A stretch of 63,878 bases of DNA, the filler included, from Collodictyon triciliatum (Eukaryota): assembly GCA_043381765.1 (NCBI GenBank). It is 27 parts of 27 records of this genome, joined end to end, with 100 filler letters (N's around TTAATTAATTAA, not from the genome) between each part and the next. Parts side by side here need not be neighbours in the genome. Positions count along the whole stretch, not along the records: positions 29,038 to 31,353 come from JBHJMP010009113.1; positions 31,454 to 33,767 come from JBHJMP010009114.1; positions 33,868 to 36,180 come from JBHJMP010009115.1; positions 36,281 to 38,592 come from JBHJMP010009116.1; positions 38,693 to 41,003 come from JBHJMP010009117.1; positions 41,104 to 43,414 come from JBHJMP010009118.1; positions 43,515 to 45,824 come from JBHJMP010009119.1; positions 45,925 to 48,233 come from JBHJMP010009120.1; 19 more parts are not named here. One strand, 5' to 3'. This document shows positions 7,386-50,454 of the stretch, piece by piece (the first letter of the stretch is position 1; each line of letters begins with the position of its first letter). A program made the translations under genes and the position numbers. The notes under the pieces were generated by a model. That model did not search any database. It worked only from the letters and a program-made list of their open reading frames with translations, and had not been told where the DNA came from.

Positions 7386-9416
<2,031 letters not shown>

Positions 9417-12116: not shown

Positions 12117-12160
<44 letters not shown>

Positions 12161-15001: not shown

Positions 15002-16143
15002 TCAACTTGGACAAATGTCGGTAACTTTTCTCGGTTCTTCGTTTATCCATAGCAAGGGGAGATCATTTATAGAAGACGCATTTTTGTTGATGATTTCATC
15101 TTGAACATACTTCCAGTATATGGTATTCCTTGTGTTCTCATTAAAGTGAATGAATGAAGGTCTTGATTTCGTAGGAACATACTCTAGATGGTCCTGATTT
15201 TTCCTCACCCAAGGACAATCAGGTTGGCAAACATCTTCGATCTTTAACATCACCATAGAAAACTCTACACAGTGATCTAGATAGATACCGTATTTACCCT
15301 TCAGGTGAGCTTCATGGAAGAACATCTGGTCGTCTGTGCCTAAATTTTTCAGACCAGCCATCTCCTCACACATGTCTCCTAACATTTCTTTCAAGACCCA
15401 GGCGTATGCGATATAAATACCCGAATTTATGAAGCGTGGCCTGAATAAAAAATGGCATGTTACGTTGCCTACTTCGTAGATTTATCAAATATTCATATTA
15501 AAAATTACCCTCTTTCCGAACATTTATTGAAGGACCCGATAGAGTCGTACAACATCGAGCAGCTACTTTCGCTGAGGATGGCATTTGGAATGAATCTTTG
15601 GACGAGCTCTGGGGGCCAACACACATATTCAACTGACATAACCATACTGACATTTTTTTGCCTGAATTTACGGACGATCTCGTCAAAATTTTCATTGAAT
15701 ACTACGTCAAGGCAATCGGCAAAAAGAATAATAGTGTTATTATTATAGTTCCGGACTTGTTTATTCATTTCAATAATTTTGTTTCTGTTATGAACCCATT
15801 TCGAACCGAATTTCAAGATATGTAATAGGACACCATTTGAATTAGCTGACTTTACAAAGTTGCAGAATCTATGCTTCGGGGAATCGCAAATAGATATTAC
15901 CACTGCATTATTTCTTGTCAATGCTTTATTGTACACATCCTTATAAATGCCCATATCTGATCCATGATATAATTCAATGCCAAGACCTTGGTTTTGATCT
16001 TGTCTAAGGTTTAACAGATCTCCTCTGAAAAAGCCAAATGACAATCTGACATCAAAGCCGTTGCATAAGTAATAAAAAAAAAACGACAGAATTATAATAA
16101 TTGTGAACCCTGAGTAGAGATATCCGGCACTAAATACCGCCAT
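15002..16143 (-). CDS. PLOD1-3-like glycosyltransferase (GT-A) domain protein with N-terminal membrane anchor; complete, 2 exons, 357 aa
   Basis: Exons 16143-15509 and 15440-15002 with a 68-nt GT-AG intron. Motifs IILFADCLDVVF, MSVEYVCWP, PRFINSGIYIAYA, TDDQMFF, IYLDH and FIHFN parallel PLOD GT motifs (FTDSYD, SAExxCWP, RFLNSG, DDDQLF, HGNG). Confidence 0.85.
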
Positions 16144-26620: not shown

Positions 26621-26857
26621 GGCTATCCATTTCTTGCATAAAAACGCTACACCTGCATGTCTCTGCTGGTTATCGTCACAGGACCACATTTGTGGACCTT
26701 TCCATATTTCATCATTGGTTAGATTATCAGGGCTGAGCCATGTTTCTTGGAGGCAGATGATGTCTGAATGAGAGAAAATAGCAGTGTTTAGAGCCTCTTT
26801 TCTTTTTTGGGGGTCATTAATCACCCTAACGTTCCACGACAGAACGTTAAAACGCAT
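26621..26857 (-). CDS. ORF2 N-terminal apurinic-endonuclease-like (APE/EEP) domain, truncated by the contig end
   Basis: MRFNVLSWNVR...DIICLQETWL...W...HAGVAFL are the N-terminal motifs of L1-type endonucleases. Confidence 0.9.
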
Positions 26858-28937
26858 GAATAATCTATTGGCTTTTGGAAGCAGTAGCCTCCGGTGGTTG
26901 GCCCTCTCCGCTGGAGCTGGGTTGCTCAGGGTGGGATGGTTTACTCGAGTAATCCTTCATTTGGCCGGTGTTATAATTGCTCGCGTTTCGGCCAGGATTT
27001 GTCGGATGGTCTTGGACTTTGGGCTGCACCCCCTTCGTAGCTGGTGTGTTGGGAGATGCACTCTGTCGGTCACTAGTAACCCTCGGTTCCAATTTTTCTC
27101 CCTCATCCACGCGGTAGGCAGAGCAACTATGTTTCCACTTTCATTCTGGCTTGCTTTCTGGCTCGCTATATTCGGTGATGTACTTGACTGATTCACTCTC
27201 TTTTCATCGGGCGAGGCTTTAACTTCGACGGTTTCGGTCTTTTTTTGGTGCGCCAGTGATTGCAGCATGAGTAACCGGTGTTTTGTGTTCATGAACATTT
27301 CTTTTTCTTGCATTGGAAGCCGATTCTCGCTGGGGAGTCGCAAGAGTTTCGACAGCAGGTCTGGTCCCATAAACAGTACTTGAGGAGTAGTTTGTCGTTC
27401 CCGAAGCTTCAAGGTGCTCACTTTCTTCTTCAGCAGAACCTTCTATGATGACGACAGGTTGGATGGACTGTTGTTCCTCCAATCCAGAGTCTGGGACGTC
27501 GCTTCTTATGGATTGCGCAGTACTTGCTGAAGAAAGAGTCTCTTGGGTGGTCCCAGGAGCCATGACCTCTAAGGAGGTAGGCGGGTGTGGTTTGCTGGGT
27601 GCCATTATGCTGATTCCCGATTCTGTTACCGAGTTGGCTTGGGCTTCCCTTTCCTCGGCATCTCTCCATGATTTGAAGGAGAGCTTGGTGAGATATCATT
27701 GGCTTGAGTAGGTTGGTAATCTTGGAGGTTATCGATGTTTCCTCCACTTTGAAGCCATTCCACGATTGATATTGCTTCCTCTGTGTTCATTGGCGAACTT
27801 GATGCACTTTCGGGAAAATCACCGGGTGTTTCGTCCATTTCTTGATTTTGGGGCCGCTCTTGAACCTTTGTCTTGATTGAGACTTCGAGCACTTCATCCA
27901 TGGGCGTCTTGTCACATTTTCTCCCTCTGGCATTAGAGGACGACGCGTGTTGCCTTTGGCCTTGTTTGTGGGCTCTGGGCTTGTTTTGCACAGACGATTC
28001 CTGCACGCTTGGCATGTCTTTAGCGCTGAAGTCGGCTACTTTTGTGTGGAAGCCTGAGAAGCGAGTGGCGGTGTTTTGTTTGTTGGTGGCTGCCTGATTG
28101 GTGGGCATCGGCTTGGCGGTAGTTTTTTTTTTTTGTGGTTTGACCTTTTTTGTCATTCCCTTATTTGTTGGGGAGAGTTGATGGGATGTCAGTCTCTTTG
28201 AGGGCGCGTATCTCCACGCGACAGCGTCTGCCATGAATGACGACAAAGGTTGGTTTTCCCATTTTTTCCTGTTCTTCGTCAAAAGTAACGAGTGCGTCAT
28301 TCATGCATATTCCTCCAGGCTTTGTCCAGTTGACTTTGATTGGGGTGAATTATTCACTGCAGGCTTCAAAAATGTCAGTCCAGCTGACCCCCGCGGTATG
28401 TTAGACAGGTGCGCAACCTTTGTGACAGTTTTTGCTGGCATGGGAGTGTATTGGTGGTTGAGGAGCTGGAAAGACCCCTGTTTAACGAAGGCAGCCGCGT
28501 TTTCTTTTCATGGGGACGGCGATTCTGAGTCTGAGGGCAGGGCTGTCCACCATAAGCGTCACGTCTTTCTCGTAACATTTTTGGGTTCTCATTACATCAC
28601 GCAGTTGCTTGCACATATTACTACGGTTTGCGAAAGAGAGAACCGGCCATTGCTTGCCCCGAAGGCGGACAAAGCAGTCTTTGTCTTTGAAGAGTTCATT
28701 ATGTATCGCACTTATTGATTCTGATACGTCAGCTGCAACAGTTCGATCGGGAGGTTCCGTTTCCCGATGCAAGTTCGACCGGTTGAAGTAGACCAGCCGG
28801 ATCAAAGAGAGAATGCTGCTTTCTTGGCGCAAGCTGTCGAAAAGGATGGTGAAAAGAGAAGTGAGGTTCGTTTGATAAGCACTAGGTCGAGTGCAAAGAG
28901 GACTTCTCTGCATGGTTGACTCACCTCCTTCCAGACC
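26621..28937 (-). mobile_element. L1/Tx1-like non-LTR retrotransposon: frameshifted ORF1 followed by the start of ORF2
   Basis: Intronless. ORF1 is broken into several frames (28913-26865), then a 7-nt spacer, then ORF2 begins with an APE endonuclease. A homologous copy sits at 23700-24102. Confidence 0.85.
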
Positions 28938-29044
28938 NNNNNNNNNNNNNNNNNNNNNNNNNNNNNNNNNNNNNNNNNNNNTTAATTAATTAANNNNNNN
29001 NNNNNNNNNNNNNNNNNNNNNNNNNNNNNNNNNNNNNAAAAATT

Positions 29045-29077
29045 AAAAAAAAGGGCCAGCCTGCTCTTTTTTTTTTT
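29045..29077. terminator. Stem-loop flanked by A and T runs, upstream of the decayed ORFan gene
   Basis: AAAAAAAAGGGC-CAGCCT-GCTCTTTTTTTTTTT: a 12-bp stem with one G-T pair. Function is inferred only. Confidence 0.4.
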
Positions 29078-29089
29078 CACTATATAATT

Positions 29090-31353
29090 ATATCATCAAT
29101 TGGATTGAGAAAAGTGAAACATATATACTTGAACAACTATGTTGAAACATACTATACCGACATTGCATTTACAGCTGGGACGGGAAACGGAATAGAATTA
29201 ATTAAAGCTGCTGTAGGTAGAAAAATAGACTTTGAAACATTTAGAAAACTAAGCAAGAATTTCTATTTGGATGTCATTTTTAATGTCTGGCGCACAGAAA
29301 CCAAAATAAATACGGAACACTAACAGACGACCAGGTGTATAATGAAATGAAAAACGATGCTAGAAAATATTTTAATTTTAAATTTGATACCGTTACAATT
29401 CTATCATTGTTTCAAAAAGCACAGTCGTTTTTGGGACTCAGTAAATTTGAAACTGCAAAAAAAAAAATTGATGCATACTATGAAGGTGTAATGCAAGGGA
29501 AAAAAATTTTAGAAAATGTGGAGGATTACAAAAATCTACGAAAAGAAAAAGAAAATTTTAAAAGAAATAGACTTAACCCGACATCTGGGTTTGTCAGCAG
29601 ACAGGAAAGAAGAGTTGGATAAAATAACAAGTGAAATAGCAAAATGACGAATATCTGTTGGCCCTGAAACGCCATGCAAAGACAAAGACACACCACGACC
29701 AAGTAAAAATATATTAAATTATGTTTACAGTGCAAAAACTGGTTTTTTGGATTCTATAACAGCCGGTGAAAAACAAAAATGTATAGAAAAATTGTGGATT
29801 GAAGTCAAGACTCAAAGTTTATATTGGACTAAGTTACAGTATGATCCAAATGAACCATATATTCATTTAATATATGCTTTTTTATTTGTTTTTAATGTTT
29901 ATGTAATGAGAAGAGAGCCAATAGCTCTACCAATTGTTAATTACACTTTTGTCTGGGATAAAGCAAATAAAGTTTATGTAATAAACTCTGTAAGTCTCGA
30001 TGGTATATATTTGAGAAATGAATTAAATTATTTGACAGCAAAAGGACTACCAGCACAGTATGCCAATTTAAAAGCTACTTTTAGCGATATATCGTTCACT
30101 AACAGACACAAAGAACATTTTTATAATGTTTTTATTGCTGATGCTGGTCGAACTTTTGTAGAACCCACACCAATAGAACTACCTCAACCACAACCTCCCA
30201 AAAAAAGCCAGCTGAATTTAAGCCTACAATAGGAGACAAAAGAATAGAAGCTGACATAGAAGCTGGAAAAATAACTAATATAGAATTATAAACAAAATTA
30301 CAGGGAAATTTACGAGATAAAATTAGTGAAGCTGAAAAACGTGAAAAAGAAAACGATGAAGCAAAAGAAAAATACTATGAAAAATTACTTTTTAAATTAA
30401 ATAGTACATTGATGGCTCGTATTGAAGATGAAACTCGGATAAATCCAACAAATCCAGAATTACCTCAAAGGCCAGTCACCCCTAAACGATTACTAAGTCA
30501 AATTACACCAATATCTGAACGAGAAGCAATTATAAATGACGAGCAACATGATATAGCAAATTTATACAATGAACTAAAAATACAATTTGATAAATTTAAA
30601 GAAATTGTAGGATATTGTGCAGATCCAGAATTGAAAAAACCTGATGTACTTTTTATATGATCAGAAAATTTAAAGCAGAATTGCGTGGTAATGTTGAAAA
30701 TATTCAAGGTCAGTTACCCGAATCAGTGGAAAGACTTATGATATTAGATAAATATGCTAGTTTATCAGCTAAAATAGGAGTTGTTGAAAAAAATATAACG
30801 GACTACAACCTGGAGAAATTTTTATGAATTCAGAAATAGAAAATCTAAAAAAAGACAACACAGATAGATTTGTTGCTCCTCAAACGCCTGTTTCAAAACT
30901 ACGGACGCCGGCAAAAACTCCTATTTCCATTTCTCCGTCACGACCTGAAACAGTTCTAACGCCTGGGCCCTCACCTCAAACAAGTCTAGCTCGAAATTTG
31001 TTTGCCAATGATAATTTAAAAATGGAAGAGTTTTATAATAGAATTTTTGAGACCTATGTTTCGAGATGATTTTAGAACATTTCAAGAAAGACTTTTGCAA
31101 CCAACAGAAAAATCAGGAAATTATTCTCTAGTTATGTTAGCAAATGGTGTGGATCAACTTTGGGATAAATATCTTCAGATTGTCTGGAATACAACTTCAG
31201 AAAAAGACCAAATAGCCAGAACAGAACTTGCTCTTATTCCATCTAGTTATAAAGAAGTAAAATATGGAACACTTGCACAATTTTTAGTTTTAATGGATAC
31301 AGTGCTACGCAAACCATAAAATCAAAGACGCTCAACATTTAGAACAGAATTAA
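29090..31353 (+). pseudogene. Decayed intronless gene (~750 codons visible), paralogue of the ORF at 48233-47025
   Basis: The ORF pieces join into one reading frame through about six 1-nt frameshifts, mostly in A/T runs, plus about three in-frame stops. The 3' ~130 codons match 48233-47840 (PSPQTSLARNLF, KSGNY, MLANGVDQLWDK-LQIVWNT-SEKDQ). Confidence 0.8.
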
Positions 31354-31453
31354 NNNNNNNNNNNNNNNNNNNNNNNNNNNNNNNNNNNNNNNNNNNNTTA
31401 ATTAATTAANNNNNNNNNNNNNNNNNNNNNNNNNNNNNNNNNNNNNNNNNNNN

Positions 31454-33622
31454 TGCATTCTCTTCTGCATTCTCTTCTGCATTCTCTTCTGCATTCTCTT
31501 CTGCATTCTCTTCTGCATTCTCTTCTGCATTCTCTTCTGCATTCTCTTCTGCATTCTCATTTGCACTCTCATTTGCATTCTCGTGATTCTCAGCATGGTT
31601 TTCGTCATCAATGGTTTCATTTAGCTTCTCTTCATCCTCATTAACAGGAGAGTCATCTGCTATTTTATTAGCATGGCTACTTTCGCAATTGCTATCTCCT
31701 GATTTTACATTCTTCAATTCCGCTTCTTCGCTGATGTGTGGTTCCCCATCTTTATTGGAGTAGTCTTGGTTTTCGTCTTGCTCCATGCAAAAATCTTTTT
31801 CTTTAGATAATGACTGCACCGAACCAATGTCTTCTTTGCCCTCTCCGTATTCATTACTGAAGTCCTCTTTTGCACCAGTATCTGTGTTATTCGGCTCGAC
31901 GCATGTTTGGTGTTCATCGTTTCCATTGTGGCTATCTTCATCTGCTTTGATGGGTGAGGTATTTGCAGTTTCTGTGGGATTCATTGATTTTTCATCATCG
32001 ACATCCCTGTTAACATCCTTAGTTTCCTCCTCTTTCAGTGATTCTTCCGTATTTGATGCATTTTCTACATGGGGTTCAAGGCTTGCTTCGTCTTCAATCG
32101 CCTCTTCTGTCATCTGATTCTCGATATTGATAGATTCGATAGTATGGATCTGATAACCATTATTCTGAATGACTTCCTCATTTTTCTGAGTGAGAGTACC
32201 TTTGGCAACCACGTTATCTTCAAATTCACTATCATCTTCTGTTTCGGTATTTTCTATGACTTCCTCATTCGTCTGAGTGGGGGTACCTTTCGTAATCTCG
32301 TTATCTTCAAATTCACTATCATCTTCTGTTTCGGTATTTTCTATGACTTCCGCATTTGCCTGAGTGAGAGTACCTTTCGTAATCTCGTTATCTTCAACTT
32401 CTTCATTTCCATCTTCTGTTTCGGTATTTTTTATGACTTCCTCATTCGTCTGAGTGGGGGTACCTTTCGTAATCACGTTATCTTCAAATTCACTATCATC
32501 TTCTGTTTCGGTATTTTCTATGACTTCCTCATTCGTCTGAGTGAGAGTACCTTTGGTAACCGCGTTATCTTCAACTTCTTCACTATCATCTTCTGTTTCG
32601 GTATTTTCTATGACTTCCTCATTCGTCTGAGTGGGGGTACCTTTCGTAATCTCGTTATCTTCAACTTCTTCATTTCCATCTTCTGTTTCAGTATTTTCTT
32701 TGACTTCCTCATTCGTCTGAGTGAGAGTACCTTTGGTAACCGCATTATCTTCAACTTCTTCACTATCATCTTCTGTTTCGGTATTTTCTATGACTTCCTC
32801 ATTTGCCTGAGTGAGAGTACCTTTGGTTACCACGTTATCTTCAAATTCACTATCATCTTCTGTTTCAGTATTTTCTATGTCTTCATCGTTTGTCTGGGTG
32901 AGAATCTCCTTCTTGACAACTTTATCATCATCATCTTCTTCTTCTGTATTGTTCCCAGTCTCCGCATCGTTTTCATCCGTCTCATCATAATCACTCTCTG
33001 ACAATCGACTTTCAATCTTGACAGGGACCAAGGACACCTCCGCCGAAACCCTTTCAGGTTCATCATCCACAGAGCCATCGCTATCATCATTTCGTCCAGT
33101 CTCCTGAAATGCATCACGAGTCTTTGTAATCTGATTTTCAGCGACCAGGGCGACGCTCTTTGTATCTGTGTCTGTGCTCCCTGGCGATTGCTTCCTATTC
33201 TTTGGTTGCACATGTTCGGCCACAACCAAGTGCTCGCTCTTTTCCTTTTGGGAAGTTGTCTTGGGCTCGTTCCTCGGTAGTTTTTTAGCCTCCGGCTTAG
33301 GTTCGGCATTTGGCTTGGGTTTGCTGGGGATCTTGGCCAGAGGAACACTCTTATTCAACTTCGTGTTAGGCGCAACATGGATGGGATCCGTCACAGCTAA
33401 TGTCTCAGGCTCGGATTCTCTGGCCATCTCCGATGGATACGTCTGATTCAGGGGCTCCAACCGTCTCGGTTTTGCATCTCGGCGATGCGCTGCAGCACGG
33501 ACGACGGCGCAGTTGCGTGCGTATCCCGCATATCGCTGGTACTCTTTTTCGGCTTCGACATGGTCGTAGTGCGACTTTTGGCCTTGTAGGCGTTTGAAGA
33601 GGGACTGTGTAAGAGCAATCAC
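31454..33622 (-). CDS. Large exon encoding a highly acidic repeat protein; its N-terminal segment resembles the C-terminal helix of CFAP97/KIAA1430-type proteins
   Basis: Open frame of more than 720 codons running off the contig end. SLFKRLQGQKSHYDHVEAEKEYQRYAGYARNC resembles the CFAP97 consensus as I recall it. The rest is an E/D/N/T-rich tail. Confidence 0.6.
32163..32905 (-). repeat. Coding minisatellite, 8 full units plus a partial unit of 87-90 bp (LTQTNEEVIENTETEDDSE(E)xEDNxxTKGT)
   Basis: Visible in both the DNA and the translation. Confidence 0.95.
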
Positions 33623-33871
33623 TGAGATGGGTAAATGTATTCGCGTCTTTATTTTACATGTGTGTTTCTGTGTGTTTCTGTGTGTTTCTGTGTGTTTCTG
33701 TGTGTTTCTGTGTGTTTCTGTGTGTTTCTGTGTGTTTCTGTGTGTTTCTGTGTGTTTCTGTGTGTTTNNNNNNNNNNNNNNNNNNNNNNNNNNNNNNNNN
33801 NNNNNNNNNNNTTAATTAATTAANNNNNNNNNNNNNNNNNNNNNNNNNNNNNNNNNNNNNNNNNNNNTGGT

Positions 33872-36180
33872 ATGTTGGAAATGCAAGACAAGAACGAAAT
33901 GGCCCGCAGTATGGACGCCGAGTATATCGCCAAGTTGCGAAATAAAATGTTAGAGTTGACACCTCGCCGCCCTGTGGCACCCGGCCGATTTATAAAACCT
34001 GCTCCGGTTGCGCAAACTCAGGCTGCTACTCAAACCTGGACACCGCTTCATGAAATCAGACGTCGAGAAGACCCTACTACACCCATGAAAAGTGGAGGTT
34101 GGATGATAAATACATCTCCCCGCAAGACAGACCGTGTCCCCCAGCAACTACGAATCGAAGGAGCCGAGTCACAACAAACAGCTGCCACACAGCGATCATT
34201 TACACCTATTAGACCCCCACTTGCACTTGACCAACCAGTGCTTCAACCACCAAGAAGTCCAGCGGCCCAAGAATTTATAGACAATTCAAAAGCCTTGACT
34301 GTCAGGATATCTCAGACGACCAGAAATCTAGCAGTGGCCAAGAGAATGACCCCCGGCAGATTAACAAACACACAAGGAGATTTCCTGGGGGCCCAGCAGC
34401 TGTATATTGAACAACTCCAAAATGAATTGAGACAATTAAGAGGACAATTGAATGGTCAACAACTAGCCATTCGAGACATTGACAAACCTGAAGCGCAGGG
34501 TAATATTGCGCAAGTCAGAAGTAATTTCTTGGCCCTTGAAGATAATCGTGCTGCTAGAGTTCAAGCCTTACAAAGCACAGTAATCGGCACACAATTAGCC
34601 CTCGTTGAAAGACGAGAAGAATTAACTCCTCAAGGCAATCGAGACCTCAATATAATGGAGAAGGCGTTAAGGGAAGCAGCCAACGACCTGGTTAAACTTG
34701 AGAAGCTGAGACTACAACAATTGGAATTCTATATGTCCCTTGATCAAGAGCGACAAGAACAAATCGAAGCACTCAAAGGAGCCGCTCCAAAAGCCCCAAG
34801 TAGGCTAGCCCAGGAAGCAGCTAAAAGAGCAAATGAAGAGCAGGCTAGGAATCAAGAGCTGCGACAACAAATGGCAGATTTACAGGGTCGACTCGATCTA
34901 TTGACACAACAACAACAGCAAACACAAGCTCAACCTACAAGCACAAACCCCGCTGAACTCAGACGACAACAAGAGTTACTCGCACAACAAACTGACCAGA
35001 TAAGAGACCTACAAAGACAACTAAATGAAAAAGAAGTTAAACTTAATGATGGAGTTGCCATTGAAGAAAAATTAAAAGCCGACTTAGAAGCAGCTATTGC
35101 CGCATCCAAGGCCACACCCAAAAGACTGAAACAAGCAATCAACCGCGCTAACGAGGAGCAAGCCAGAAACCAACAACTTCTACGAGAGATTGAAGAAGTA
35201 GGTAGAAAAAGACAAGAAGCAGAAAACAGACTAGAAGCTGTAAAACAAAGGCAAGCTAACAAACCCATAACGGAAGTATCCCCAGAAAAACAAAAACAAG
35301 TTGCTGAAAACCGTAAAAAAAGCATAGAGAATTTAGAAGGGAAACTTGCTCGACGAGAAAAAAAATATCAGGAAACAATAGCTCGATTAGAACAAAGTAA
35401 TCTTAAACTTGTGGAAGAATCAGACGCAGCACTTGCAAGATTACAAGCAGACAGGGAAACAGATGCTCAGACCATACGCAATTTAATGGCACAAACACAG
35501 GCGCAGGGCGAAACAATTCAATTCCAAGCCCGAGAAAGTAAAGAACGAGAACAAGAAATTCAAAGACTCGTTCAGGAAAATATTGACCTACGAGCAAATT
35601 TAGATAGACTGAGAGCACGCCTGAGACAAGGGGGTGCTACTACACCCAGAGAGGGAACCACAACCCCAATACAACCGCCAAATAATCTTCCCGGTACTGG
35701 TATGGGATCACGTTCGCAACAATCATTTACTGCCACTCAACGCGGCGCAGGTATCAATCCAGTTACACCTTCGTTTGTTGGAGCTACACCAAGTATGACA
35801 CCAGTCTTTGCACCAAACAGACCGCAAGTCAGAGATTCCCGAGACACATCCAACGCTAGCAGATTTGCTCAGAAAGTGTCCAGGTTCTTTGAAACAGCCG
35901 CCCCAGGTACCAACAACACCACATTCGCTTTTAATTCTTATGATACATTCTTAAATGCTATGGCAACGTATGGCATCGAAGCAGTTGATTTGACAAGCGA
36001 CACTAGTTATCTCGAAGATATTGTAACTTCATTTTATTCTGGGGGTGTTTCGAGACAGGACCTGAACACACTCATTGCCAGTGCGAGAGCAGCTGGAGCG
36101 TGGCCTCTCAAGTACCAACCAAAGTATGGAGAACAAACAAGTGTCAATACCCGCTCGGTTGCGTTCTTGAACTGGTCACT
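33872..36180 (+). CDS. Intronless ~770-codon ORF, coiled-coil/Q-rich protein of unknown family; truncated at the 3' end and possibly at the 5' end
   Basis: The frame is open across the whole contig. It has an internal repeat RANEEQARNQ (twice) and many S/T-P-x-K/R motifs. Confidence 0.8.
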
Positions 36181-36477
36181 NNNNNNNNNNNNNNNNNNNN
36201 NNNNNNNNNNNNNNNNNNNNNNNNTTAATTAATTAANNNNNNNNNNNNNNNNNNNNNNNNNNNNNNNNNNNNNNNNNNNNTATTATGTATTATTATTATG
36301 TATTATTATTATGTATTATTATTATGTATTATTATTATGTATTATTATTATGTATTATTATTATGTATTGTTATTATGTATTGTTATGTATTGTTATTAT
36401 TTATTTATTATCCCTATTCATGCTGCATCAAGTATGTATTTTAGATTGATGTTTTATAATCCACTTTGAACCGACAG

Positions 36478-38490
36478 TATCAAATCGGTGAACGAAAAAC
36501 TTGGAACGAGCTTTTACGCGCGAGTATTTCAATCTTGTTTAATCCATGCACGTACCTGCGCTGAATATGTAAGTATTTGCAAATGCACCTTGTTATATTG
36601 ATGCATAATACAATTTAATCATGTAGCTGGGACAAGATAAACTTCATGTTAGTGACCACCACCAAATTCCCACCAATGTGCTATTAAGATAATTTTCTGT
36701 CGACATTCAAATATTTAATAGGCAGACAAGGAACTTACGAAACAATATGATAAGCCGATCTACATGGAAATGATGGTGTCAAATCTTCGTAACTACCATT
36801 CTAAGGTCTGATCAACCTGCACAATACTCTTGATATTCTCAACTATTCCTTTAATATGCATGTATTCATTTCAATAAAAGAAAAATAGGATGATACTCGA
36901 GATTTACACACTTCTTAAAAAAAAAAATTTGTTTGTAAAAACACAGCTCAAGGAAATATATCCCAATCATCTGCTTTACTTTATGAACAATCAAATCCGA
37001 TTGCTTTTCAAGGTTGGATAACAAATCATCATATATTTGAAAAAAATAAACAAGAACTTATCTTCGTTTCATAAATATGGAATTAATCGTTTATTTTGTT
37101 TTTTTGTTTTTTTGTTTTGTTTGTTTGTTTGTTTGTTTGTTTGTTTGTTTGTTTGTTTGTTTGTTTGTTTGTTTGTTTGTTTGTTTGTTTGTTTGTTTGT
37201 TTTACTTAGGCGGGCATGTATGAAATGTGTGAACAAGCGTTCAAAAATATCACAGACGCATGCTACAAAGGCGGCGTGGACCATTTACCTCATTCCCAGA
37301 TTACTGAATACTATTATTACCTTGGAAAACTGAGCTGTCTGAACATGAAAGTTGAAGAAGTAATCAATCAACGTCATATATAATTCAATTACCGACCATA
37401 TTGTCTCACATATCGACACAAAATCGGTTTAGGCCGAGAAGCATCTTTACAAGGCATGGAGTCTGTGCCCCCCAAAGTATAAAAAAAATCGAAGGTAAGC
37501 TATCTTTTTCCTTCTCATGAATACTCCATGAGCATAATTTTTTTTATTTTTTTATTTTTTTATGCGATGCAGCTGGCATGAGAGATCGTTTATTCAAGAT
37601 TTTGATTGTAATAGGATGATAATGAATATGCTAGTTCCTTTATGGATATTGAAACAAAAGTATGTGTCGAAGGCTCACTTGAGGGAAAACAACTTGGAAG
37701 TTTTCATCGACCTAATCCACAGTATAAAGTCTGGGAACGTGTCTCGTTTTTCTGAAATTGTGGAGGTGATTATTGAATTATCTTTTTCTTTTAAAAATGT
37801 AGAAAACCATATCCCTATCATTATTATCATAGAGAAAGAAAATGCATGGTATGAAACATCTTAATTTAAAAAAAAAAAAAGAAAACAAATTTTAAATCCG
37901 AATCATCGTTTCAGAGAAATGAAGAGTATTTTATGCGGACGGGAATTTTGCTTACAGTACACGCAACAAAGAAAATAGCCATCCTAAACTTTTTTAAAAG
38001 AGGGTATCAATCCTATGATATTTCTTTTCTCTTGCGATGCCTTCATAATGACACTCAATGGTATTATAAATTTCTTGTTAAAATTCATCACACAATTAGA
38101 TATGAAATCATGAAGTCCATTCCGGGCTACTTGACGAAGCCAGTCCATGTCCACGTCTCGAATTACTTTGAGGTTGGTTGATATGTGCCTCTTTGTTATT
38201 GCCTATCTGACCTTTATTCTGATTTGTATAAAATTCAAAATAACCTTGTTTTTATTATTATGTTAATATTTTCGAAAACAAGTCTGCGTATATGCTGTGA
38301 CGTTATCTTGTCCCACTCCAGTATGAGCTTCTCTTAAAATATTGAGCTGCATCGTAGGCTTTGCGGCAGCACATACCAGATCTTGACCACGACGAACTCG
38401 AATGCTACATCGCAAACCTGATTGCCGAAAAGTACATCCTCGGCTGCATCGATGCTAGGCATAATGTGATGGCTCCGAGCAATATCTGGC
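36478..38490 (+). CDS. PCI-domain protein of the PCID2/Thp1/Csn12 family, multi-exon, partial
   Basis: Peptides: LLYFMNNQIRLLFK, PHSQITEYYYYLGKL, AEKHLYKAWSLCPPKYKKNRR, LVPLWILK, SIKSGNVSRF, LDHDELECYIANLIAEKYILGCI. Confidence 0.8.
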
Positions 38491-38973
38491 TTTTGTTTTT
38501 ATTCTTGTTTTTATTCTTGTTTTTATTCTTGTTTTTATTCTTGTTTTTATTCTTGTTTTTATTCTTGTTTTTATTCTTGTTTTTATTCTTGTNNNNNNNN
38601 NNNNNNNNNNNNNNNNNNNNNNNNNNNNNNNNNNNNTTAATTAATTAANNNNNNNNNNNNNNNNNNNNNNNNNNNNNNNNNNNNNNNNNNNNAAACAAAC
38701 AAACAAACAAACAAACAAACAAACAAACAAACAAACAAACAAACAAACAAACAAACAAACAAACAAACAAACAAACAAACAAACAAACAAACAAACAAAC
38801 AAACAGACAAACAGACAAACAGACAAACAGACAAACAGACAAACAGACAAACAGACAAAAATTTACCCATGAGAAATATATATGAAAAACAAACAGCCAA
38901 TTTCACATTTCACTATCGTTTGAGCCTTAAATATCTACGCATTTGTGGTACACATACTTACGAAATGTATTAG

Positions 38974-40804
<1,831 letters not shown>

Positions 40805-41725
40805 GTTTGTGTTTATACTATACTATTTCTACTTCTGTATTTTCGAGAGCACCTTGCAATAATATTCACTACACGTCTTTGCATTCTCACTCGAACAAAA
40901 GAAAATGAAAAGAAAATGAAAAGAAAATGAAAAGAAAATGAAAAGAAAATGAAAAGAAAATGAAAAGAAAATGAAAAGAAAATGAAAAGAAAATGAAAAG
41001 AAANNNNNNNNNNNNNNNNNNNNNNNNNNNNNNNNNNNNNNNNNNNNTTAATTAATTAANNNNNNNNNNNNNNNNNNNNNNNNNNNNNNNNNNNNNNNNN
41101 NNNTTTTTTGTTTTTTTGTTTTTTTGTTTTTTTGTTTTCTTTGTTTTTTTGTTTTTTGGTTTTTGTTTTTTGTTTTTATTCTCTCGCACTTTCCGTGTCA
41201 AGCTAAAGCCGTCCGGATTTACGGCCGCCTTCCACCCTTTTCCGCATATAGGCTAAATGCGCGGGGTGTTATGCCGGTCAAGTCTTCGCGAGATAAAAGA
41301 GCGCGAATGTGACGTGCGATATCTGGCAAATACTAATTTCATACACATGCACACTTTGTCATGGGTTCTGGGATATCGAGGCCTGTGGGAAAAGAGACAG
41401 GTCTGGAGCAGCCACAGAAGGCCGAAGGCACTTGGCAGTTCAAAAGCCGCCCTTCCTCATGCAAGAGGCGGCGAAGGAAAAAAAGAAAAAGTAAAAGAAA
41501 AAGAAAAAGAAAAAGAAAAAGAACAAAAAGAGAAAGAGAAAAAGAAAAGAGATCGAAATGTACCTCTGTTTGTCCACGCGGGTGGCGGAGCTCGTCGAAG
41601 GCACCCGTAGCCTGGGAACAAACAGTCTGTGATGATGATCTGGTAACTTTTGCGTTTAGAGTGTTGCAGCTGTAAATGAAAGAGTTTTGTGCGAATAGGT
41701 CAGAAAGTAGTTGAGGTCCTTGACG

Positions 41726-42628
41726 ATGAAGACATACAAGATTGTTGTGGTTGGAGCTGGTGGAGTTGGAAAGAGTGCCCTTACCGTGCAATTTGTGCAA
41801 GGATTGTTCGTCGAAAAGGTTTCTTTTTTCTCCTTTTTTTTTCTGTTTCTTTTTTCTATTTTTCTATTTTTCTTTTTTTCTTTTTTTCATTCTTTTCTTT
41901 TTTACTTTTAACAAAAAGATATAATTGCAACTCTTACTCCTCCTAGTATGATCCCACGATCGAAGACAGTTATCGTAAGCAACTGGACATCGATGGAGAA
42001 GCAAGTATGCTTGAAATCCTTGACACTGCTGGGCAGGTTTGATCCACCATTATTGTTCAACATGCATGATAAACTCCCTCCCTCATTTCATAAACGATCT
42101 CCATATACCGTGGTCTTGAAACAACTGACTCCGTCGGGTGGACGTTGTATTTTAGGAGGAACTTACCGCCATGCGAGATCAGTATATGCGAAGTGGACAA
42201 GGCTTTGTCCTTGTCTATAGCATCACATCCACCGCGTCCTTTAACGAGATTGCTGATCTGCGCAACCAGATCTGCCGCGTCAAAGACTCTGACAACGTAC
42301 CGTGGCAAGCCAATTATACTCTTGATCTCTCGTATAATTTCCTATTTGTTTTATTTTGTTTCACTTTTTTTTTCTCTTCCGTCTTATTGTCGCCGCACTT
42401 AAGGTTCCGATTGTGATCGTCGGAAACAAATGCGACTTGGAAGGTGACCGTCAGGTGACTGCTGACAAAGGACGCACACTTGCAAATCAGTTCAAATGTC
42501 CGTTCCTCGAGGCATCTGCAAAGAATCGCGTTAATGTCAATGAAGTCTTTGTTGAGTTGGTTCGTAAGGTCAATGCGTCATCACCAAAGGGTGGCAAGAA
42601 GGAGAAAAAAGGCTGCGTCGTGTGCTAA
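41726..42628 (+). CDS. Rap-like Ras-family small GTPase, complete, 4 exons
   Basis: Exons 41726-41818, 41947-42036, 42156-42296 and 42404-42628 give [41 protein letters not shown] and a C-terminal [10 protein letters not shown] (CaaX-type). Confidence 0.95.
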
Positions 42629-42974
42629 AGGAATCAGAGTGGCATCGGGACTAAAGGATGTTATCAAACTGCAAAACACGAAAAACATCGAGAAGAGAAA
42701 CAATGTTTGCACTCTACCACATATTCCTCATCTCTTTTCCCATTCTTTTGTCTCTTTCCCTCACATGAATATTGAGAAGTGCCGACTACATAAAATACTA
42801 TGTCATCGTATGCTGGACGCTGCTCATATTGCTGTGAATAGTGACGAAACGGAGAAAGGAGTGAACCTATTTTCTTCAAATTTTATATCATCATTTTTCA
42901 TCTCTAGTGCCAACAGAATAATGGAAAACAAGAGGCGAGGTAGGTGCACATGATAGAGAGCAAACGCGAGTAGG

Positions 42975-43414
42975 GGAAGACACTACCGTGGAGAGGGTAG
43001 CACTTGGTAGAAGTCAGTGATAGCGAGTTGGCCAAGTGGGCGTCTCAACTGGTTGGTTGGTTGCGTGGGTAGCAGGGGTTGGATATGCTGTGGGATATAT
43101 CTTATGACACATTCCCACATCTCTCTTCGCTTGCAGTCAGAGTAGCGAAGAATGCGGGCGTGTTTCAGCAGCTGTTCAAGAAGCTTTTTTACACGAGGCT
43201 TTCCAGCCTGGATACATTGATTTCTCGTTCGGGTGAATCATTGGAGCGAGAGAATGCACGCACGCTCCATAAGAACCACAGCATATGTCCCCTTGTGGTT
43301 GTCCAGAGTATTCTAGAGTCGTGGGTCATTTGGTATTGTGGGCCAAACAGGATGTCAGACGCGCTGAGTCGGTTGGGAGCATAATCAAGCTCAGAGAGCA
43401 TCTTGTGGGTAGAC
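42975..43414 (-). mobile_element. Probable decayed 3' end of an L1-like ORF2
   Basis: Intronless, higher-GC stretch at the contig end. It translates to DILFGP...LWTTTRGHMLWFLWSVR, resembling the W-x-x-W-x-x-R motif at L1/Tx1 ORF2 C-termini. Confidence 0.5.
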
Positions 43415-43514
43415 NNNNNNNNNNNNNNNNNNNNNNNNNNNNNNNNNNNNNNNNNNNNTTAATTAATTAANNNNNNNNNNNNNNNNNNNNNNNNNNNNNN
43501 NNNNNNNNNNNNNN

Positions 43515-43585
<71 letters not shown>

Positions 43586-43624
43586 GGTCTTACTTATCGC
43601 AATTTGACTCTAGAAGATTATAAT

Positions 43625-43680
43625 TACCTCAACGTCACTTTGAATCGAATAAAGGGAAAAAAAATACCTCAACATCACTT
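43625..43680 (+). mobile_element. Ultra-short TSD-flanked insertion, copy C (at a DMAP1 splice donor)
   Basis: Insert 43641-43664 TGAATCGAATAAAGGGAAAAAAAA lies between TACCTCAACGTCACTT and TACCTCAACATCACTT. Confidence 0.8.
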
Positions 43681-45611
43681 CTCCCACGAGACAGGAGTTT
43701 CTCAAACTGCTGTTTTCTCTCTGTCTCAAATTCTAGTCACATCCAAGTATATGAAAAGAAATATTTGAATGCATGAATGAATTTACAATATATAATTAAG
43801 AAAGTACGAATATAATGTGAAAATGGCTCGGTATAAAATCTCGATATGATTAATTTTCAAAACGCTTTATATTTTAAGTTTTCTCTTTCTAAATAACCTT
43901 CAACCGAATAAAGGATGAAAATCATTCGTAAATTTGCGTATTCGTGAGTTGGTGTATTCGTTTTTTAAAGGAAAGAAAAGGAAAGGTAAGAACGAATCGA
44001 TTGTGTATGAATAATTTACGTTTATCGTAAGGAAATTTAGTGATTGGATGCTTCGCGATGTCTTCGGGTGGTGTACGTAATTCCATGATTCTTTTTGAGC
44101 ACGAATAAAACCGATCCTTCAAATCCTTTTTATTATTTGTACTGTTATATTATCTAGACATATGAATATATTGCATGATAACCGCGGTAAATAATAAACA
44201 AGGATAATACAAAAGCCAAACAAAGAGTAAAAAAAAAAAAAAAAAAAAATTATTAATTGGATGGTTAGAATCACTATACTACCTCGACGGATTTTTGAGG
44301 CTCGAATCTATCAGCGACAACAATGAATCTGAGGTCAAACATTTCACATAGCTCAAACAATCTATCAGTTTCTTCCTTTGTCCAACTGTCATCTATGTGG
44401 ATAGGTATATATAATTGATTTCAACAAAAGAAAACAATCGGCGATAGCATGAAGAATTCGAATTTTCGTTTAATTATAAATGTCTGCATGAAATACCGCG
44501 AAGGTCATCATTGTATTGATATAAGTATAAAATAAAAAAAATATAATATCAAGAGATCTGATTAAGCAAACCTTGTAGATGTTTCTCGTATTCTTCATCT
44601 GTGTACCGAAACATTTTTATTTTCTTAGAAAACTTTGCGAACGGGTAATCTAATGGGTGATTTTTATATCCATGTAATAATTGAAAGTAACGAGACTCGA
44701 ACATAGTTAAGCTAAAAAAAAAAATTAATAATAGAGCGGACAAGTTCAACAGAAGGTAATTAGAAAAACGTGTGTTGAAGGACTTATATATAGATCTAAT
44801 ATCTGAGAGGTTTTCAAGTTCATAAGAAATCATAATTGCAATTCAAAATTAGCAGCTCCGTGAATATATATGTATATATCATTCGGTAGGACATTCATTT
44901 GAATACCAGCAATCATAGAATCGCTCGTCCTTTTCTTAGCCCAGTGATGGAAAACCATTCCATCTCCTCTACTAGGATGAATGAAGGGTTGCCACTCCCT
45001 AAAACCAGAAAATATGTATTATCAAGGATAGAGATGTAGCACCATGTCATAGTTGCCTCTAATTGACGACGAATTAAATTATCAAAATGAAAGAGGTGAT
45101 TAATTTTTTATGTTGACTATAAGCACTTAATATTGATGATAATTGGAATCGTTGGGTTGATTTTTTTATAAAAAAAAAAATCACATATTTTTTATATAGG
45201 TTGAATTTACGAATGAGTATTAGAAAAGAAATAAATCAAAATCCAAAAAAAAATACTATTAACCAACCAGAAGTCCCGTTGTGAGGATGCAAGTCGCTTT
45301 GCTTTGAATACTATATTGTTTTTCCGGTGATGCAATATAGTGAAATTACAAATTAAGAAGTCGGATAATAGTACATAGATAATACCAGCATCACATTATT
45401 TGAGTATTTCTTGAAACACATAACAGACATTAGTGGTTGTATATTCTCGTGGAAAGGTATGATTCTTGTTGATGTCGGCTCTGATACCACTGCAAATACA
45501 TCTTCTAAACGGAAAAAAAGAAAAGGAACCTGGCGTCACTGATTTTGTGAGCTGAATCGGGGGCAGCTGTCCTCCAGTAAGGGAATATACTTCTCTGTTC
45601 TTTGCCTCCAC
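43668..45611 (-). CDS. DMAP1: DMAP1/Swc4/Eaf2 (SANT-domain NuA4/SWR1 subunit), partial
   Basis: [84 protein letters not shown]. Confidence 0.93.
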
Positions 45612-45650
45612 TGGGATTTTAATTATAAATTACCCCGACGGAAAAGATAT

Positions 45651-45704
45651 AAGAATGGGGCAAAAAATTCCTCTATTCGACTCAATGAAGAATTAGGCAA
45701 AAAA
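45651..45704 (-). mobile_element. Ultra-short TSD-flanked insertion, copy D (degenerate)
   Basis: Insert 45668-45687 (reverse complement CATTGAGTCGAATAGAGGAA) lies between AAGAATGGGGCAAAAAA and AAGAATTAGGCAAAAAA. Confidence 0.65.
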
Positions 45705-45924
45705 TAATAATGAATTAAGGGCAGATAAAAAAAAATTTTATTCACGACAGACTTCGCTGTTGGCGCAAGGGCAGATAAGAATATGATAAAAAAAAAAAAA
45801 AAAAAAGGAAAAGGATAAGAAAAANNNNNNNNNNNNNNNNNNNNNNNNNNNNNNNNNNNNNNNNNNNNTTAATTAATTAANNNNNNNNNNNNNNNNNNNN
45901 NNNNNNNNNNNNNNNNNNNNNNNN

Positions 45925-47005
45925 CATACTTTTTTCCATTCTGTACACCATAATAACCACCATTGCCATCGGCATTGATAGTTATCTGCGAAATACCATT
46001 TGTAAATGCAATTACTTTACCGATTGGACTACCGTCTTTTGCCACGCCTGTAACTCTTTCTGACGCAAACGTGGATATTGGAGTGTGTCCAGCTGGAATT
46101 TTCTGCTGTCCAGCCATATATTCAGCCATAGCCCTGTTCTGCACTTGCAATTTTTTAATAATGTCAAGTCGTCTGATTAATTCTTTTTCGTCCTCATCCG
46201 CACTCTCAATATACTGTGCCCCAATTTTATCAAATTCTTTTACCAATTGTGGCTTTGTCATTTTTTTGTATTCTTGACCATAGTAGTACTCGAGTCCTTC
46301 TAGAGTCTTGACTTCAGGAATAAATGTTTCTGGAGCATATGTCTCAGGGTCTTCTGGGTCAAAGTCAGGGTTTATAGTCAACGGATTTATATTAAGTCCA
46401 TATTTCATATCTATTTGTCCAGTTCGTTCATATTGTTCAAGCATCGCTCTTTCCTCGGCATCAGTCAATCTTGAAAATCGTGGGTCTCTCTGCGGTCCTA
46501 GGGCATTATCAATCTGTATATTTCCAGCTTGAACTACAGGAGGTGGTCCTTGAGGGACATTGACAATAGGAGCCGGGACATTGACAACAGGCGCCGGTAG
46601 CCCAGCAATTCGTGCCACACCAGCAGCTACCGCCTGAATTTGAGCATTTTGTTGACCTATCTGAGTTCCAAGTGCCTGTATACTTCCAGTATTTCGTTCT
46701 AAATTTGTGTTTGTTTCTCCTAACCGGTTTTCTGTTGTTCTCAAGGCTTCTTTAAAAGCACCCTTCATTGCCTCCGTAAATTGTGATAGTCCCATTTCTA
46801 CACCCACACGCGGGTCAGCCGGACCTGCTGCTGCTTGCGCTGCTTGCGGTCTTGGAGGTCCACTAGCCTGTGAAGCAAGTTGTGATGAACTGGCTGCGCC
46901 TCCAGTTGAACTAGAACCGGATAATGTACCAGCTCCTGCTCTTGGTGCTAAAGATGATGCTGGTGCGCCTTGAATTGCTGGTTGTTTTCCTGGTGGTTGA
47001 CTCAT
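45925..47005 (-). CDS. Intronless ORF of unknown family (>360 aa; A/G/S/P/Q-rich N-terminus, short coiled coil), 3'-truncated
   Basis: The ATG at 47005 follows a 19-nt AT-only spacer, and the frame stays open to the contig end. Confidence 0.8.
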
Positions 47006-47024
47006 ATATTATTAAATAAAAAAA

Positions 47025-48233
47025 TTATTTATTGAGTCGAATATCTAAAAAAAATTTGTCTGGTACAACCCAAATCCTCAGAGTATTGTCCGGGATTTTC
47101 TTTGTGTACTTTTTTGTTTTCCACTGAAAGCTTTCCTCCTCTGTAAATGTTGGACCCCTACGCGGTTCTTGTTGCGTTTCATCCACATATTCATATTGAT
47201 AATCCGGTTCATCTAAATCTTGTGATTCTGAACGTACTATTTGAAAACCGCTAATATCAGGGTCATCTTCATCTTCTTTTTCATATTCCATTACTATCAA
47301 AGCTCGTTCATATTCATTTTCAATCATCGGCTCATATTCTAATAATAATAATGGTGGTGATTGAGTTTGTACTGTGGCCTGGGAGCTACTTGAGGAACCT
47401 GGTGGAAGTCGTAATTCTAATGGAACCATTTCATTGTAATACTCAGGACCTTTAATAGGTAGTCCTTTTTTTGATATATCTCTATAATTTTTTGTGTTGG
47501 TGCAATTGAAACATCATATGAGTATTTTTTTGTAACTAAAGTTCCTTTTTCATTTTCTCTTTCGTCTTCAATAACTTCAATAAAACGGTTTCGGATTGGC
47601 GCAGGTAATTGTTTTTCTATTATATATTCAAATCCAAAATTTAAATCATATTTTTCTAGTTTTACATCTTTTACACCATCTCTATAATTATATGGAGTTA
47701 TAAAATATTCATTTGATGGTAATTTTGATACATCTTCATCTAATAAATATATTCTAGGGTTATGTAATTTGTCATAAACAGCAGTAGCACTCATGCAAAT
47801 CTTATAAAAATCAACTGGCATACCTAGTTTTGCAATATGTAGTTCTTTTAAAAATTCAATGCGTCGTTCATTTTCTGGTTTTTTAAGGACTCTATCTATA
47901 AATGTCAAAAATTGGGGTATTGTTGAAAAAGTTACAGCATGTAAACTGCCAGGACCAAGTTTAAAATCGCTTATTGCTCTTTGGTCTTTTTCTGAAGGTG
48001 TATTCCATACAATCTGAAGAAATTTATCCCAAAGTTGGTCCACACCATTGGCTAACATACCGTGAGGATAATTTCCTGATTTTACTTGTGGTTTTTGAAT
48101 TCTATCTAGAAATGTAGCAAAATCATCATTAAATATAGGTCTCAAATATTTATTATAAAACTGTTCCATAGTTAAATTTTCATTGGGAAACAAATTTCGA
48201 GCTAGACTTGTTTGGGGTGAGGGTGTAGGCGTT
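47025..48233 (-). CDS. 3' part of a large intronless gene of unknown family, split by one frameshift at an A7 run
   Basis: ORFs 48233-47417 and 47429-47025 join into ...EIYQKKGLPIKGPEYYNEMVPLELRL... if one A is added at 47466-47472. Paralogous to 30958-31353. Confidence 0.75.
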
Positions 48234-48996
48234 NNNNNNNNNNNNNNNNNNNNNNNNNNNNNNNNNNNNNNNNNNNNTTAATTAATTAANNNNNNNNNNN
48301 NNNNNNNNNNNNNNNNNNNNNNNNNNNNNNNNNCATTTTTCATTTTTCATTTTTCATTTTTCATTTTTCATTTTTCATTTTTCATTTTTCATTTTTCATT
48401 TTTCATTTTTCATTTTTCTTTTTTCATTTTTCTTTTTTCATTTTTCTTTGGCACGTTGTTATATGACCTATGGCCATCCATTTACACACCCACACCAGAC
48501 ACCAGCGCCCAAACGCCGCACGTCTTGGGTTGCCAGCCGCCCATTTGGCCATTCCAAAATCACAAGAGGAATATTCCAGAATTGGCCGACGTTGTCTTGC
48601 CCTATCCGTGCAGCTTGATCGCGGATGAGAAGTTGATGGATCACCACAACGCGGGATATTCATCTTGCAGCCGATCGGCCTTGCGCAGGGAACAGGCTTG
48701 TTGGAGCTGCGTCGAGCTCCGGATCGAACTGCGCCAATATTCTCAAAACAAAGGGGCTGAAATATGAGAGAGAGGGAGAGAAAAAAACCAGAAACTAATC
48801 TTCTAGATCAATCATCAGTCTCTCTTCTTTTTTTTAATTATTATTCTTTATTTTTTTAATAATCTCTTCTTTTTTTATGTTTTCCTCTTTACAACTACAG
48901 CACCACGACCGGAAGCAGGCTTCTCTCGCACGTCTCCTTTTCACCACTGTCTTTTCTTTTTTTCTTTTTTTTTTTTTTGCCAGTATTTCAAAGTCG

Positions 48997-50454
48997 ATGG
49001 CGCACTCATACGTAGTGCGGGAGGATCACAACACCGCCGAGGTTGGTGCCCAGAAGGCCAGCAAAAACAACTGGTTCAACCTGCGCAAAACGCTTCCAGA
49101 CCCCAGAGAGGTGGACCAAAGTCTTATCCAGCCCGAAAATCAGGCACCTGTTGAAAATCGTGGACCTGAAGTATCTCTTGAAGCTCACTCCTCCTTCGCG
49201 TCTAAGCTTTTCTTGTGCGTTTTGTGGGCTGTGGGGAAGATTTCACACTTTAGAGTCTACCCCAATTCCAGCTGGCATGAGTCGTTTCTCTTGCTCCTGA
49301 TTATTTGTGCAATATACAATACAGTCACAATTCCGCTTCGCCTTGCATTCAAGTTGCACTCAGACATGTCTATTATGATTCTGGACTATGCCGTATCGGA
49401 TGTGGTTTACATCCTCGACATATTTTTTAACATGCGCTCGGCCTACCACGATGAAGGCTCCCTGCAAACATCAAAAAGAAGGCTCATGGAACGATATCGG
49501 AGATCTGGGGGCTACTATCTCCACCTAATCTCGACTTTCCCGCTGGAAATACTCTCTTTGGTGGTTGATCCTTCATACCGCACTTACTTTCGCTTGAATC
49601 GTGTACTGCGAATTTTTTCCATGCCAAAGGCCATAGAGCGCATCGAAAAGCTGATTAGCAAAAATATCAACGTCGTTCGATTGGTTGAATTATTCTTCTC
49701 CGTTATGATATATGTACATTGGGTAGCATGCTTGTGGATATTAATTGCTAGGCTGGAAGGGTTTGAAAAGTCAAACTGGGTCCGTCATTACGATGTGAAT
49801 GACTATGAAACCTTTGACCAATATATAATTGCATTGTATTGGGCTATGATTACTTTTGCCACTGTGGGCTACGGAGACATCGTTGCTACAACGCGTTACG
49901 AACGGGTTTGCAACTTCTCTTTCTTTTTTTTTTTTTTATCAAAATGATTCATTGTTATGATCAGTAAGCCAATTAAATGATTTTTTACAAAAAAAAAAAA
50001 AAAAATAGATATATACAATTCTGGTTGTGTTCATCGGAGCTGCCGTGTATGCCACTATCTTCGGTAATATGACAAATTTAATTGCATCTTTGAATTCTGA
50101 CAGTGCTCGCTACCGTGAAAAATTAGACATGCTCAATGAGTATATGAGGTAATCTGTTTGTTTACTCTTCTTGTTTTTTTCTGGAATTTTTCATGAAGAT
50201 GAAATTCATGATAATATCCTTGTCATCATATTCGCTGCAACACGACCTCAAAGAAAGTCATTGAATAAATATGAAGATACCGCGAACTTCCGCACTCGCT
50301 TCAAGAACGTATTCGTAACTACTACAATGTCATTTGGACCCGACACAAAGGACTTGATGAGTCTTCTATTTTGAATGACCTTCCTCCTTCTCTAAGGTCG
50401 GATGTCGCACTTTATTTGCATCATCATCTTGTACAGAAAGTTCCCCTTTTTCAG
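48997..50454 (+). CDS. Voltage-gated K+ channel of the cyclic-nucleotide-binding-domain (EAG/HCN/plant Shaker-like) family, partial
   Basis: S4 RTYFRLNRVLRI, HWVACLW, pore ALYWAMITFATVGYGD, C-linker LPHSLQERIRNYY and ILNDLPPSLRSDV...KVPLFQ. The start is tentative. Confidence 0.93.

Follow-up and report, generated by a model that had tools for sequence, protein, structure and literature searches.

Probable fragments of diverged Polinton-like viruses in a window of the Collodictyon triciliatum assembly

Endogenous Polinton-like viruses (PLVs) are already known to fill protist genomes, and an element of this kind is therefore not new in itself. Hallmarks of PLVs are a packaging ATPase of the A32/FtsK-HerA type, a double jelly-roll major capsid protein with a penton protein, an integrase (rve or tyrosine recombinase), a replication module (pPolB, TVpol or primase-S3H) and a genome of 14–40 kb between terminal inverted repeats, with target-site duplications when integrated. 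The published PLV gene set includes an A32 ATPase, an rve integrase, a primase/D5-S3H replicase, Tlr6F and homing endonucleases (PMC12220804, 10.64898/2026.06.19.733378), and long fibre-like proteins are encoded by most PLVs (PMC12220804). Here, we describe two contigs from a 63,878-nucleotide stretch of C. triciliatum DNA (GenBank assembly GCA_043381765.1, filler included; hereafter the window), namely c1 (29038–31353, + strand) and c2 (45925–48233, − strand). We think it likely that both are pieces of PLV DNA, representing two or more diverged copies that are most probably integrated in the AT-rich, microsatellite-rich eukaryote that was sequenced. We favour this reading because environmental relatives of the two genes that the contigs carry, referred to hereafter as genes A and C, adjoin genes for a packaging ATPase, an integrase and a primase-helicase. 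What was observed directly is the homology, the order of the genes and the presence of hallmark genes on contigs of relatives, and compact intron-free genes separated by a 19-nt spacer lend further support. The element would thus belong to a known class, that of endogenous PLVs; what is new is that its two visible genes come from unnamed families without a Pfam match, although these families may be listed in the supplementary tables of PMC12220804, PMC10120064 and 10.64898/2026.06.19.733378.

A gene pair on two contigs of the window

The window is composed of 27 short contigs separated by N44-TTAATTAATTAA-N44 spacers; all are ~2.3 kb long apart from the last, which measures 1.1 kb. With contig ends judged by eye, 20 of the 27 have a microsatellite or homopolymer at one end at least, which agrees with an earlier note on this DNA, made from the sequence alone, that most contigs end in microsatellites. 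Both c1 and c2 are among the other seven; the same note had described the two as compact, intron-free and bounded by sequence other than simple repeats, and all of this is borne out, though c1 starts with an A-rich stretch. Each is ~2.3 kb long, such that the window contains 4.6 kb of the element. The overall GC content of c1 (0.314) lies inside the range of the host contigs, and scans of the window with Rfam and for tRNAs revealed no RNA genes.

The relationship between the contigs is apparent from an alignment of the 3′ end of c1 with the 5′ end of reverse-complemented c2, in which 303 of 394 aligned bases are identical. An overlap of only ~77% identity shows that the copies are two and have diverged, and that the contigs are not halves of a single locus. 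The identical 27-nt stretch picked out by the earlier note occurs exactly twice in the window, with no mismatch (two occurrences being reached in 0 of 100 shuffles), and the common peptide that it had named is found in both copies of gene A. Its term “multicopy” is appropriate to the extent of the two copies seen in the window.

A “longer” protein search using the c2 part of gene A yielded two proteins, P0007 and P0008 (81 and 41% identity), both of which are 1022 aa in length and so match the earlier estimate of roughly 1000 aa for the complete product. Relative to P0007, gene A of c1 is extensively disrupted: the alignment proceeds in six successive frame segments with six frame changes (at least three of them in A-runs), there are three in-frame stops (TGA at 29645–29647, TAA at 30289–30291 and TAA at 31317–31319), and the position of the start codon is occupied by ATA with no ATG, giving ~10 disabling lesions in all. 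An alternative genetic code was considered for the stops and rejected, since the three align to differing residues (R, L/Q and E) and the six frame changes would remain.

Gene A of c2 (−) is, as had been noticed, nearly intact, running in one frame from the contig end to 47470 and then on to a stop at 47025–47027. Its sole interruption is a single missing base in an A7 run (47466–47472), the open frame requiring A8. Because P0007 reads through that point, we regard the frame shift as a lesion or sequencing error and not as a gene boundary; a programmed frameshift was likewise rejected, P0007 and P0008 both being continuous through that position.

Gene C was correctly placed by the earlier note, its start at 47005 (−) falling 19 nt past the gene A stop on the same strand. 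The part present in the window encodes a low-complexity coiled-coil N-terminal region and the start of a conserved C-terminal domain. A protein search with this part returned six proteins, the best of which, P0001 (407 aa), shares 91% identity over the whole query. The N-terminal half also holds an insertion of ~140 residues (46480–46560, −) belonging to the window lineage and lacking in short forms of the protein, which comprises a heptad-like region and PAPVVNV repeats present in two or three copies among relatives. The features of both contigs are given in Table 1.

Table 1. Features of the gene A–gene C element on contigs c1 and c2 (window coordinates).
Feature	Position	Strand	Basis or remark
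AT-rich leader 5′ of gene A copy 1, with T11 run and TATATAA	29038–29095	+	T-run resembles one upstream of gene A on L002
Gene A copy 1, residues 2–749 of ~1022-aa protein, disrupted	29096–31352	+	tblastn versus P0007 and P0008; lesion contexts
27-nt stretch	30977–31003	+	Identical to 48188–48214 (−), within homologous overlap of both copies
Gene C, residues 1–360 of ~407-aa protein, runs off contig end	45925–47005	−	91% identity to P0001
AT-rich 19-nt spacer between genes A and C, ATAT just before ATG	47006–47024	−	c2 sequence
Gene A copy 2, C-terminal ~404 residues (619–1022)	47025–48232	−	81 and 77% identity to P0007 in two frame segments

Relatives of the pair among virus-type genes

A metagenome scan with the gene C alignment returned two loci, L001 and L002. 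Arranged in this order on the latter, a contig of 7,349 nt, are a 97-aa C-terminal fragment, a Pox_A32 packaging ATPase (E = 3e-13, scoring 50.2 bits where the cut-off is 22.8), a 785-aa DUF5906 protein (D5-type helicase region, 6.9e-16), a 194-aa open reading frame (ORF), an rve integrase (6.6e-12), a 340-aa gene A homologue directly downstream of the integrase and gene C, which begins 16 nt later. The gene A–gene C pair recurs on L001, followed by a homing endonuclease (HNH_3 and NUMOD4, 1908–2477, −). In tblastn comparison of every L001 and L002 protein with the window, matches were restricted to c1 and c2 and were made by genes A and C only (for L002, gene A homologue 1e-22, 37% identity over 147 residues; gene C 4e-50, 60% identity over 136 residues), confirming the earlier remark that no hallmark gene is visible here.

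More distant relatives extend this picture. An IMG/VR scan using a distant gene C sub-alignment (A4) produced one contig, L003 (12,855 nt, bearing a giant-virus metagenome-assembled genome name), where 27 nt separate gene C from a Pox_A32 ATPase downstream of it (7.5e-15, above the Pfam cut-off) and where further genes are D5_N, ThyX, GIY-YIG (11785–12246) and Tlr6F/DUF5754 (2.6e-11). Gene A is absent from L003, and a small glycine-rich protein is common to L002 and L003 (54% identity over 97 residues). The ATPase alignment led to the same single IMG/VR contig only (L003/L004), while gene C alignments A1 and A5 and gene A alignment A6 gave no IMG/VR match. Prokaryote genome contigs gave no match, nor did a phage collection when searched with the L002 ATPase.

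Recorded contig sizes also bear on linkage. P0007 and P0001, the closest relatives of the gene A and gene C products, are each recorded with a longest contig of 12,670 nt, and P0008 and P0003 each with one of 10,102 nt; P0061 (from the gene C cluster) and P0044 (an ATPase 89% identical to that of L002) share a longest-contig size of 14,815 nt. The longest contigs of the relatives span 10.1–15.4 kb.

The naming of L003, along with its ThyX and GIY-YIG genes, invites a reading in which genes A and C derive from a small Nucleocytoviricota-related element or an integrated giant-virus fragment and not from a classical PLV, and IMG/VR does file some PLV-sized groups under Nucleocytoviricota, often with rve integrases (10.64898/2026.06.19.733378). 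We judge this to be very unlikely, given that L003 has no Pfam match to a capsid of nucleocytoplasmic large DNA viruses (NCLDVs) or to another giant-virus core gene (VLTF3, PolB and others gave none among the scanned ORFs of L003 or of the window), that contigs with relatives of the L002 ATPase do not exceed about 15 kb and those with gene A or C relatives 14.8 kb, and that L002 has the look of a typical PLV module. As regards Maverick/Polinton elements (Polintoviricetes), L002 and L003 (both incomplete) lacked Pfam matches to DNA_pol_B_2 or a protease, with a D5-like helicase in place of the polymerase, and neither a virophage-type capsid nor a cysteine protease was found on these contigs by Pfam, which is weak for these families. 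On L003, candidate ORFs of 386 and 299 aa had no Pfam match, and a 589-aa ORF is a capsid candidate by size and position alone.

A third explanation would have PLVs acquire genes A and C independently, either as members of a family of host genes or as cargo carried by a non-viral transposon. Although neither protein has a viral hallmark fold or family, and L003 lacks gene A, we consider this to be extremely unlikely: the three relative contigs retrieved all place the genes among virus-type genes with no cellular gene recognised, all 30 gene C representatives possess the C-terminal domain and none a cellular Pfam domain (E≤1e-4), and the genes are intron-free within an intron-rich genome.

Under the PLV reading, genes A and C would be lineage-specific genes travelling as a pair, and the element of the window would carry the same hallmark genes as its relatives, spreading by means of the rve integrase to leave copies that then decay.

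The relatives' contigs have a further feature upstream of their genes. An AT-rich motif, AATAATATATAA, sits 10–25 nt upstream of several starts on L003 (e.g., 5287–5298, 6225–6236 and 9212–9223), with 12 matches at ≤1 mismatch against 5.1 expected (12 being reached in 1 of 200 shuffles); such a motif may act as a short-leader promoter like those of DNA viruses that replicate in the cytoplasm. TATA(T/A) is often found directly before start codons on L002, L003 and c2.

Two protein families without Pfam matches

Gene A and its 1022-aa relatives P0007 and P0008 have nothing above the Pfam cut-off, neither the short form nor P0007 has a usable match in the ESM Atlas, and sequence and profile searches of the PDB with genes A and C found nothing below E = 0.1. 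Alignment of the 1022-aa form with forms of 340 and 282 aa defines a common core of ~110 residues (about 250–345 of P0007), in addition to a P-x-T-P-x-R-x-P motif, a coiled-coil region and a short C-terminal RIW...Y.D motif; the window lineage has an extra ~215 N-terminal and ~330 internal residues, the latter including the ANGVDQLWDK peptide. Identity between P0007 and P0008 falls from 0.81 at residues 1–100 to 0.30–0.42 at residues 701–1000. Prediction gives a mostly helical protein whose central part forms a long coiled coil; an AlphaFold2 (AF2) model of P0007 (mean predicted local distance difference test score, pLDDT, 43.7) is poor save for helices and coiled coil at ~375–560. A conserved anchor with a variable distal part resembles fibre or receptor-binding proteins, and gene A might for this reason encode a virion-associated fibre or host-interaction protein.

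Gene C is more amenable to modelling. A profile search of 1.84 billion representatives retrieved 30 proteins at E≤0.001 (18 at E≤1e-10), of 170–630 aa and with a variable N-terminal part. In each of the 30 representatives, a conserved alpha/beta domain of ~170 residues occupies the C-terminus, mostly ending in FKARKL. Pfam gave nothing above the cut-off for gene C or P0001, and 0 of 32 aligned members showed a family at E≤1e-4. An AF2 model of P0005, built with the gene C alignment, has pLDDT >86 at residues 110–260 and displays helices, a five-strand beta unit and three terminal helices; an arrangement of five strands plus helices is not a jelly roll. A profile search of the PDB with gene C gave nothing below E = 0.6. 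Foldseek with the gene C model found no match at E≤0.001 in either the PDB or BFVD, the P0007 model being too poor for a fold search. Given the position of gene C beside the ATPase on L003 and its basic C-terminal tail, the product could be a morphogenesis, packaging, virion or DNA-associated protein that works with the packaging ATPase.

A more far-reaching interpretation, which we put forward as possible but doubtful, is that the pair marks an undescribed PLV lineage widespread in freshwater, with gene C a new-fold partner of the ATPase, gene A a fast-evolving fibre or host-recognition protein, and the near-intact c2 copy derived from a provirus that can be reactivated, for example in defence against giant viruses.

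Genomic state, neighbouring contigs and described elements

The earlier note had proposed an endogenous dsDNA virus of Polinton-like or virophage type. The type of virus holds through the hallmark genes of relatives only; because no host–virus junction, terminal inverted repeat (TIR) or target-site duplication (TSD) is visible on these 2.3-kb contigs, integration, which we take to be probable, is something we infer. Features that favour a genomic copy are the presence of two ~77%-identical copies in one assembly, the ~10 lesions of c1, the GC content of c1 within the host range and the integrase of a relative. The c1 lesions fit a dead genomic copy. Lesions were thus seen, as the earlier phrase “different stages of decay” implied; that they signify decay is uncertain, as a false consensus is often the source of frameshifts and stops when multicopy endogenous viruses are assembled from short reads (PMC10120064).

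Base composition and environmental sequence bear on a further possibility, namely that c1 and c2 are not integrated but stem from a virus that is free or episomal, or else from a second organism present in the culture or sample. G+C at third codon positions (GC3) is 0.14–0.26 in the element versus 0.40 and 0.51 in the two host ORFs recognised by Pfam; low GC3 and intron-free genes speak for a foreign origin of the element, and the GC3 difference would suit a free virus or second organism too. Among sequencing runs, 20 listed ones belonging to 15 studies contain related sequence; most are freshwater metagenomes, none is an RNA run, and the share of sampled words reaches 0.37 at best, in freshwater metagenomes. 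Contigs drawn from four runs in three studies (freshwater and subsurface metagenomes) are short and of low depth, with next to no cover at the c2 A-run; several show no difference from c2 over their full 110–270 nt and one has four differences over 415 nt, and such near-identical contigs are as expected of a free virus, as are the non-repetitive sequence at one end of c1 and at each end of c2 and the lack of host sequence on either contig. Set against this, two ~77%-identical copies, one with ~10 lesions, would not be expected of a virus that replicates, barring artefactual lesions, and a GC content for c1 inside the host range and an rve integrase in relatives also speak against a non-integrated or alien source, which we hold to be unlikely.

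Several observations weigh against the assignment to integrated PLVs. The hallmark-bearing relatives are distant (37% identity in gene A, 60% in gene C), and tblastn found no window match for the L002 ATPase, helicase, integrase, or 194-aa and 97-aa ORFs. Of the 22 proteins found with the L002 ATPase as query, not one is recorded on a contig of 12,670 or 10,102 nt, and the PLV link for the sub-lineage of the window is therefore still indirect. No capsid gene was recovered in the window or the relatives, the 589-aa candidate of L003 having no Pfam or PDB-sequence match. Neither contig displays a junction, TIR or TSD, and the apparent decay of c1 may be partly an assembly artefact. Differences between c1 and c2 are spread evenly over the codon positions (28/131, 30/131 and 33/132), leaving the overlap without clear purifying selection; this fits relaxed constraint, and also a fast-evolving region with extreme third-position AT bias. 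The functional proposals are weak for both proteins, the gene A model having a mean pLDDT of 43.7 and gene C having no Foldseek match.

Were integration confirmed, the element may connect a PLV lineage that is otherwise known from metagenomes alone with a eukaryote whose genome has been sequenced. The two orphan viral protein families defined here are candidates for new virion or packaging functions, and the element is of modest interest, more so if intact copies joined to host DNA are present in the source assembly.

Elsewhere in the window, the whole of one contig (33868–36180, +) is a single intron-free ORF of 769 aa (P0010), Q/A-rich and coiled coil by eye, with non-repetitive contig ends, GC 0.45, GC3 0.34, no Pfam family and no IMG/VR relative; it may be a retrogene or a further gene of viral or mobile origin. 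The contig at 31454–33767 (−) has a 723-aa open frame for an acidic tandem-repeat protein with no Pfam family (repeats at 32169–32903, period 90/177 nt, 8.3/4.2 copies) and ends in microsatellites of 12 and 10 nt. The highest GC content of the window (0.485) is that of 26621–28937, whose ends are non-repetitive and whose ORFs of 154–224 aa have no Pfam match; this contig may be foreign to the AT-rich host. Host-like ORFs encode an Ion_trans channel segment (48877–49947, +; 8.4e-22) and a PLOD-type glycosyltransferase domain (15505–16143, −; 1.6e-14); no other scanned host ORF has a Pfam family.

Among described systems, the small Nucleocytoviricota-like PLV groups (Zora and Mriya-related; 10.64898/2026.06.19.733378) are PLV-sized and filed as giant viruses in IMG/VR, as is L003, and they often have the rve integrase, A32 ATPase and Tlr6F that we see in the relatives; the genes that define them (Mriya48, HUH endonuclease, VLTF2/3 and an NCLDV-like capsid) were not found by Pfam on L002 or L003. 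Endogenous virophages of the Mavirus type, which PMC10120064 also mentions, share an rve integrase, an A32 ATPase and multicopy integration in protist genomes. They differ in that the relatives here have a D5-like primase-helicase, not pPolB, with no cysteine protease or virophage capsid detected. With respect to described endogenous PLVs, the present lineage stands apart in that no capsid gene was found for it, its gene A–gene C pair belongs to no named family, and no TIRs or TSDs were seen. The resemblance to those of freshwater protists (cryptophyte and ochrophyte; PMC12220804, PMC10120064) is otherwise broad: compact intron-free genes; an A32 ATPase, rve integrase, primase/D5-S3H replicase, Tlr6F and homing endonucleases, here on the contigs of relatives; more than one copy, diverged, on short contigs that are poorly assembled; and related sequence in freshwater metagenomes.

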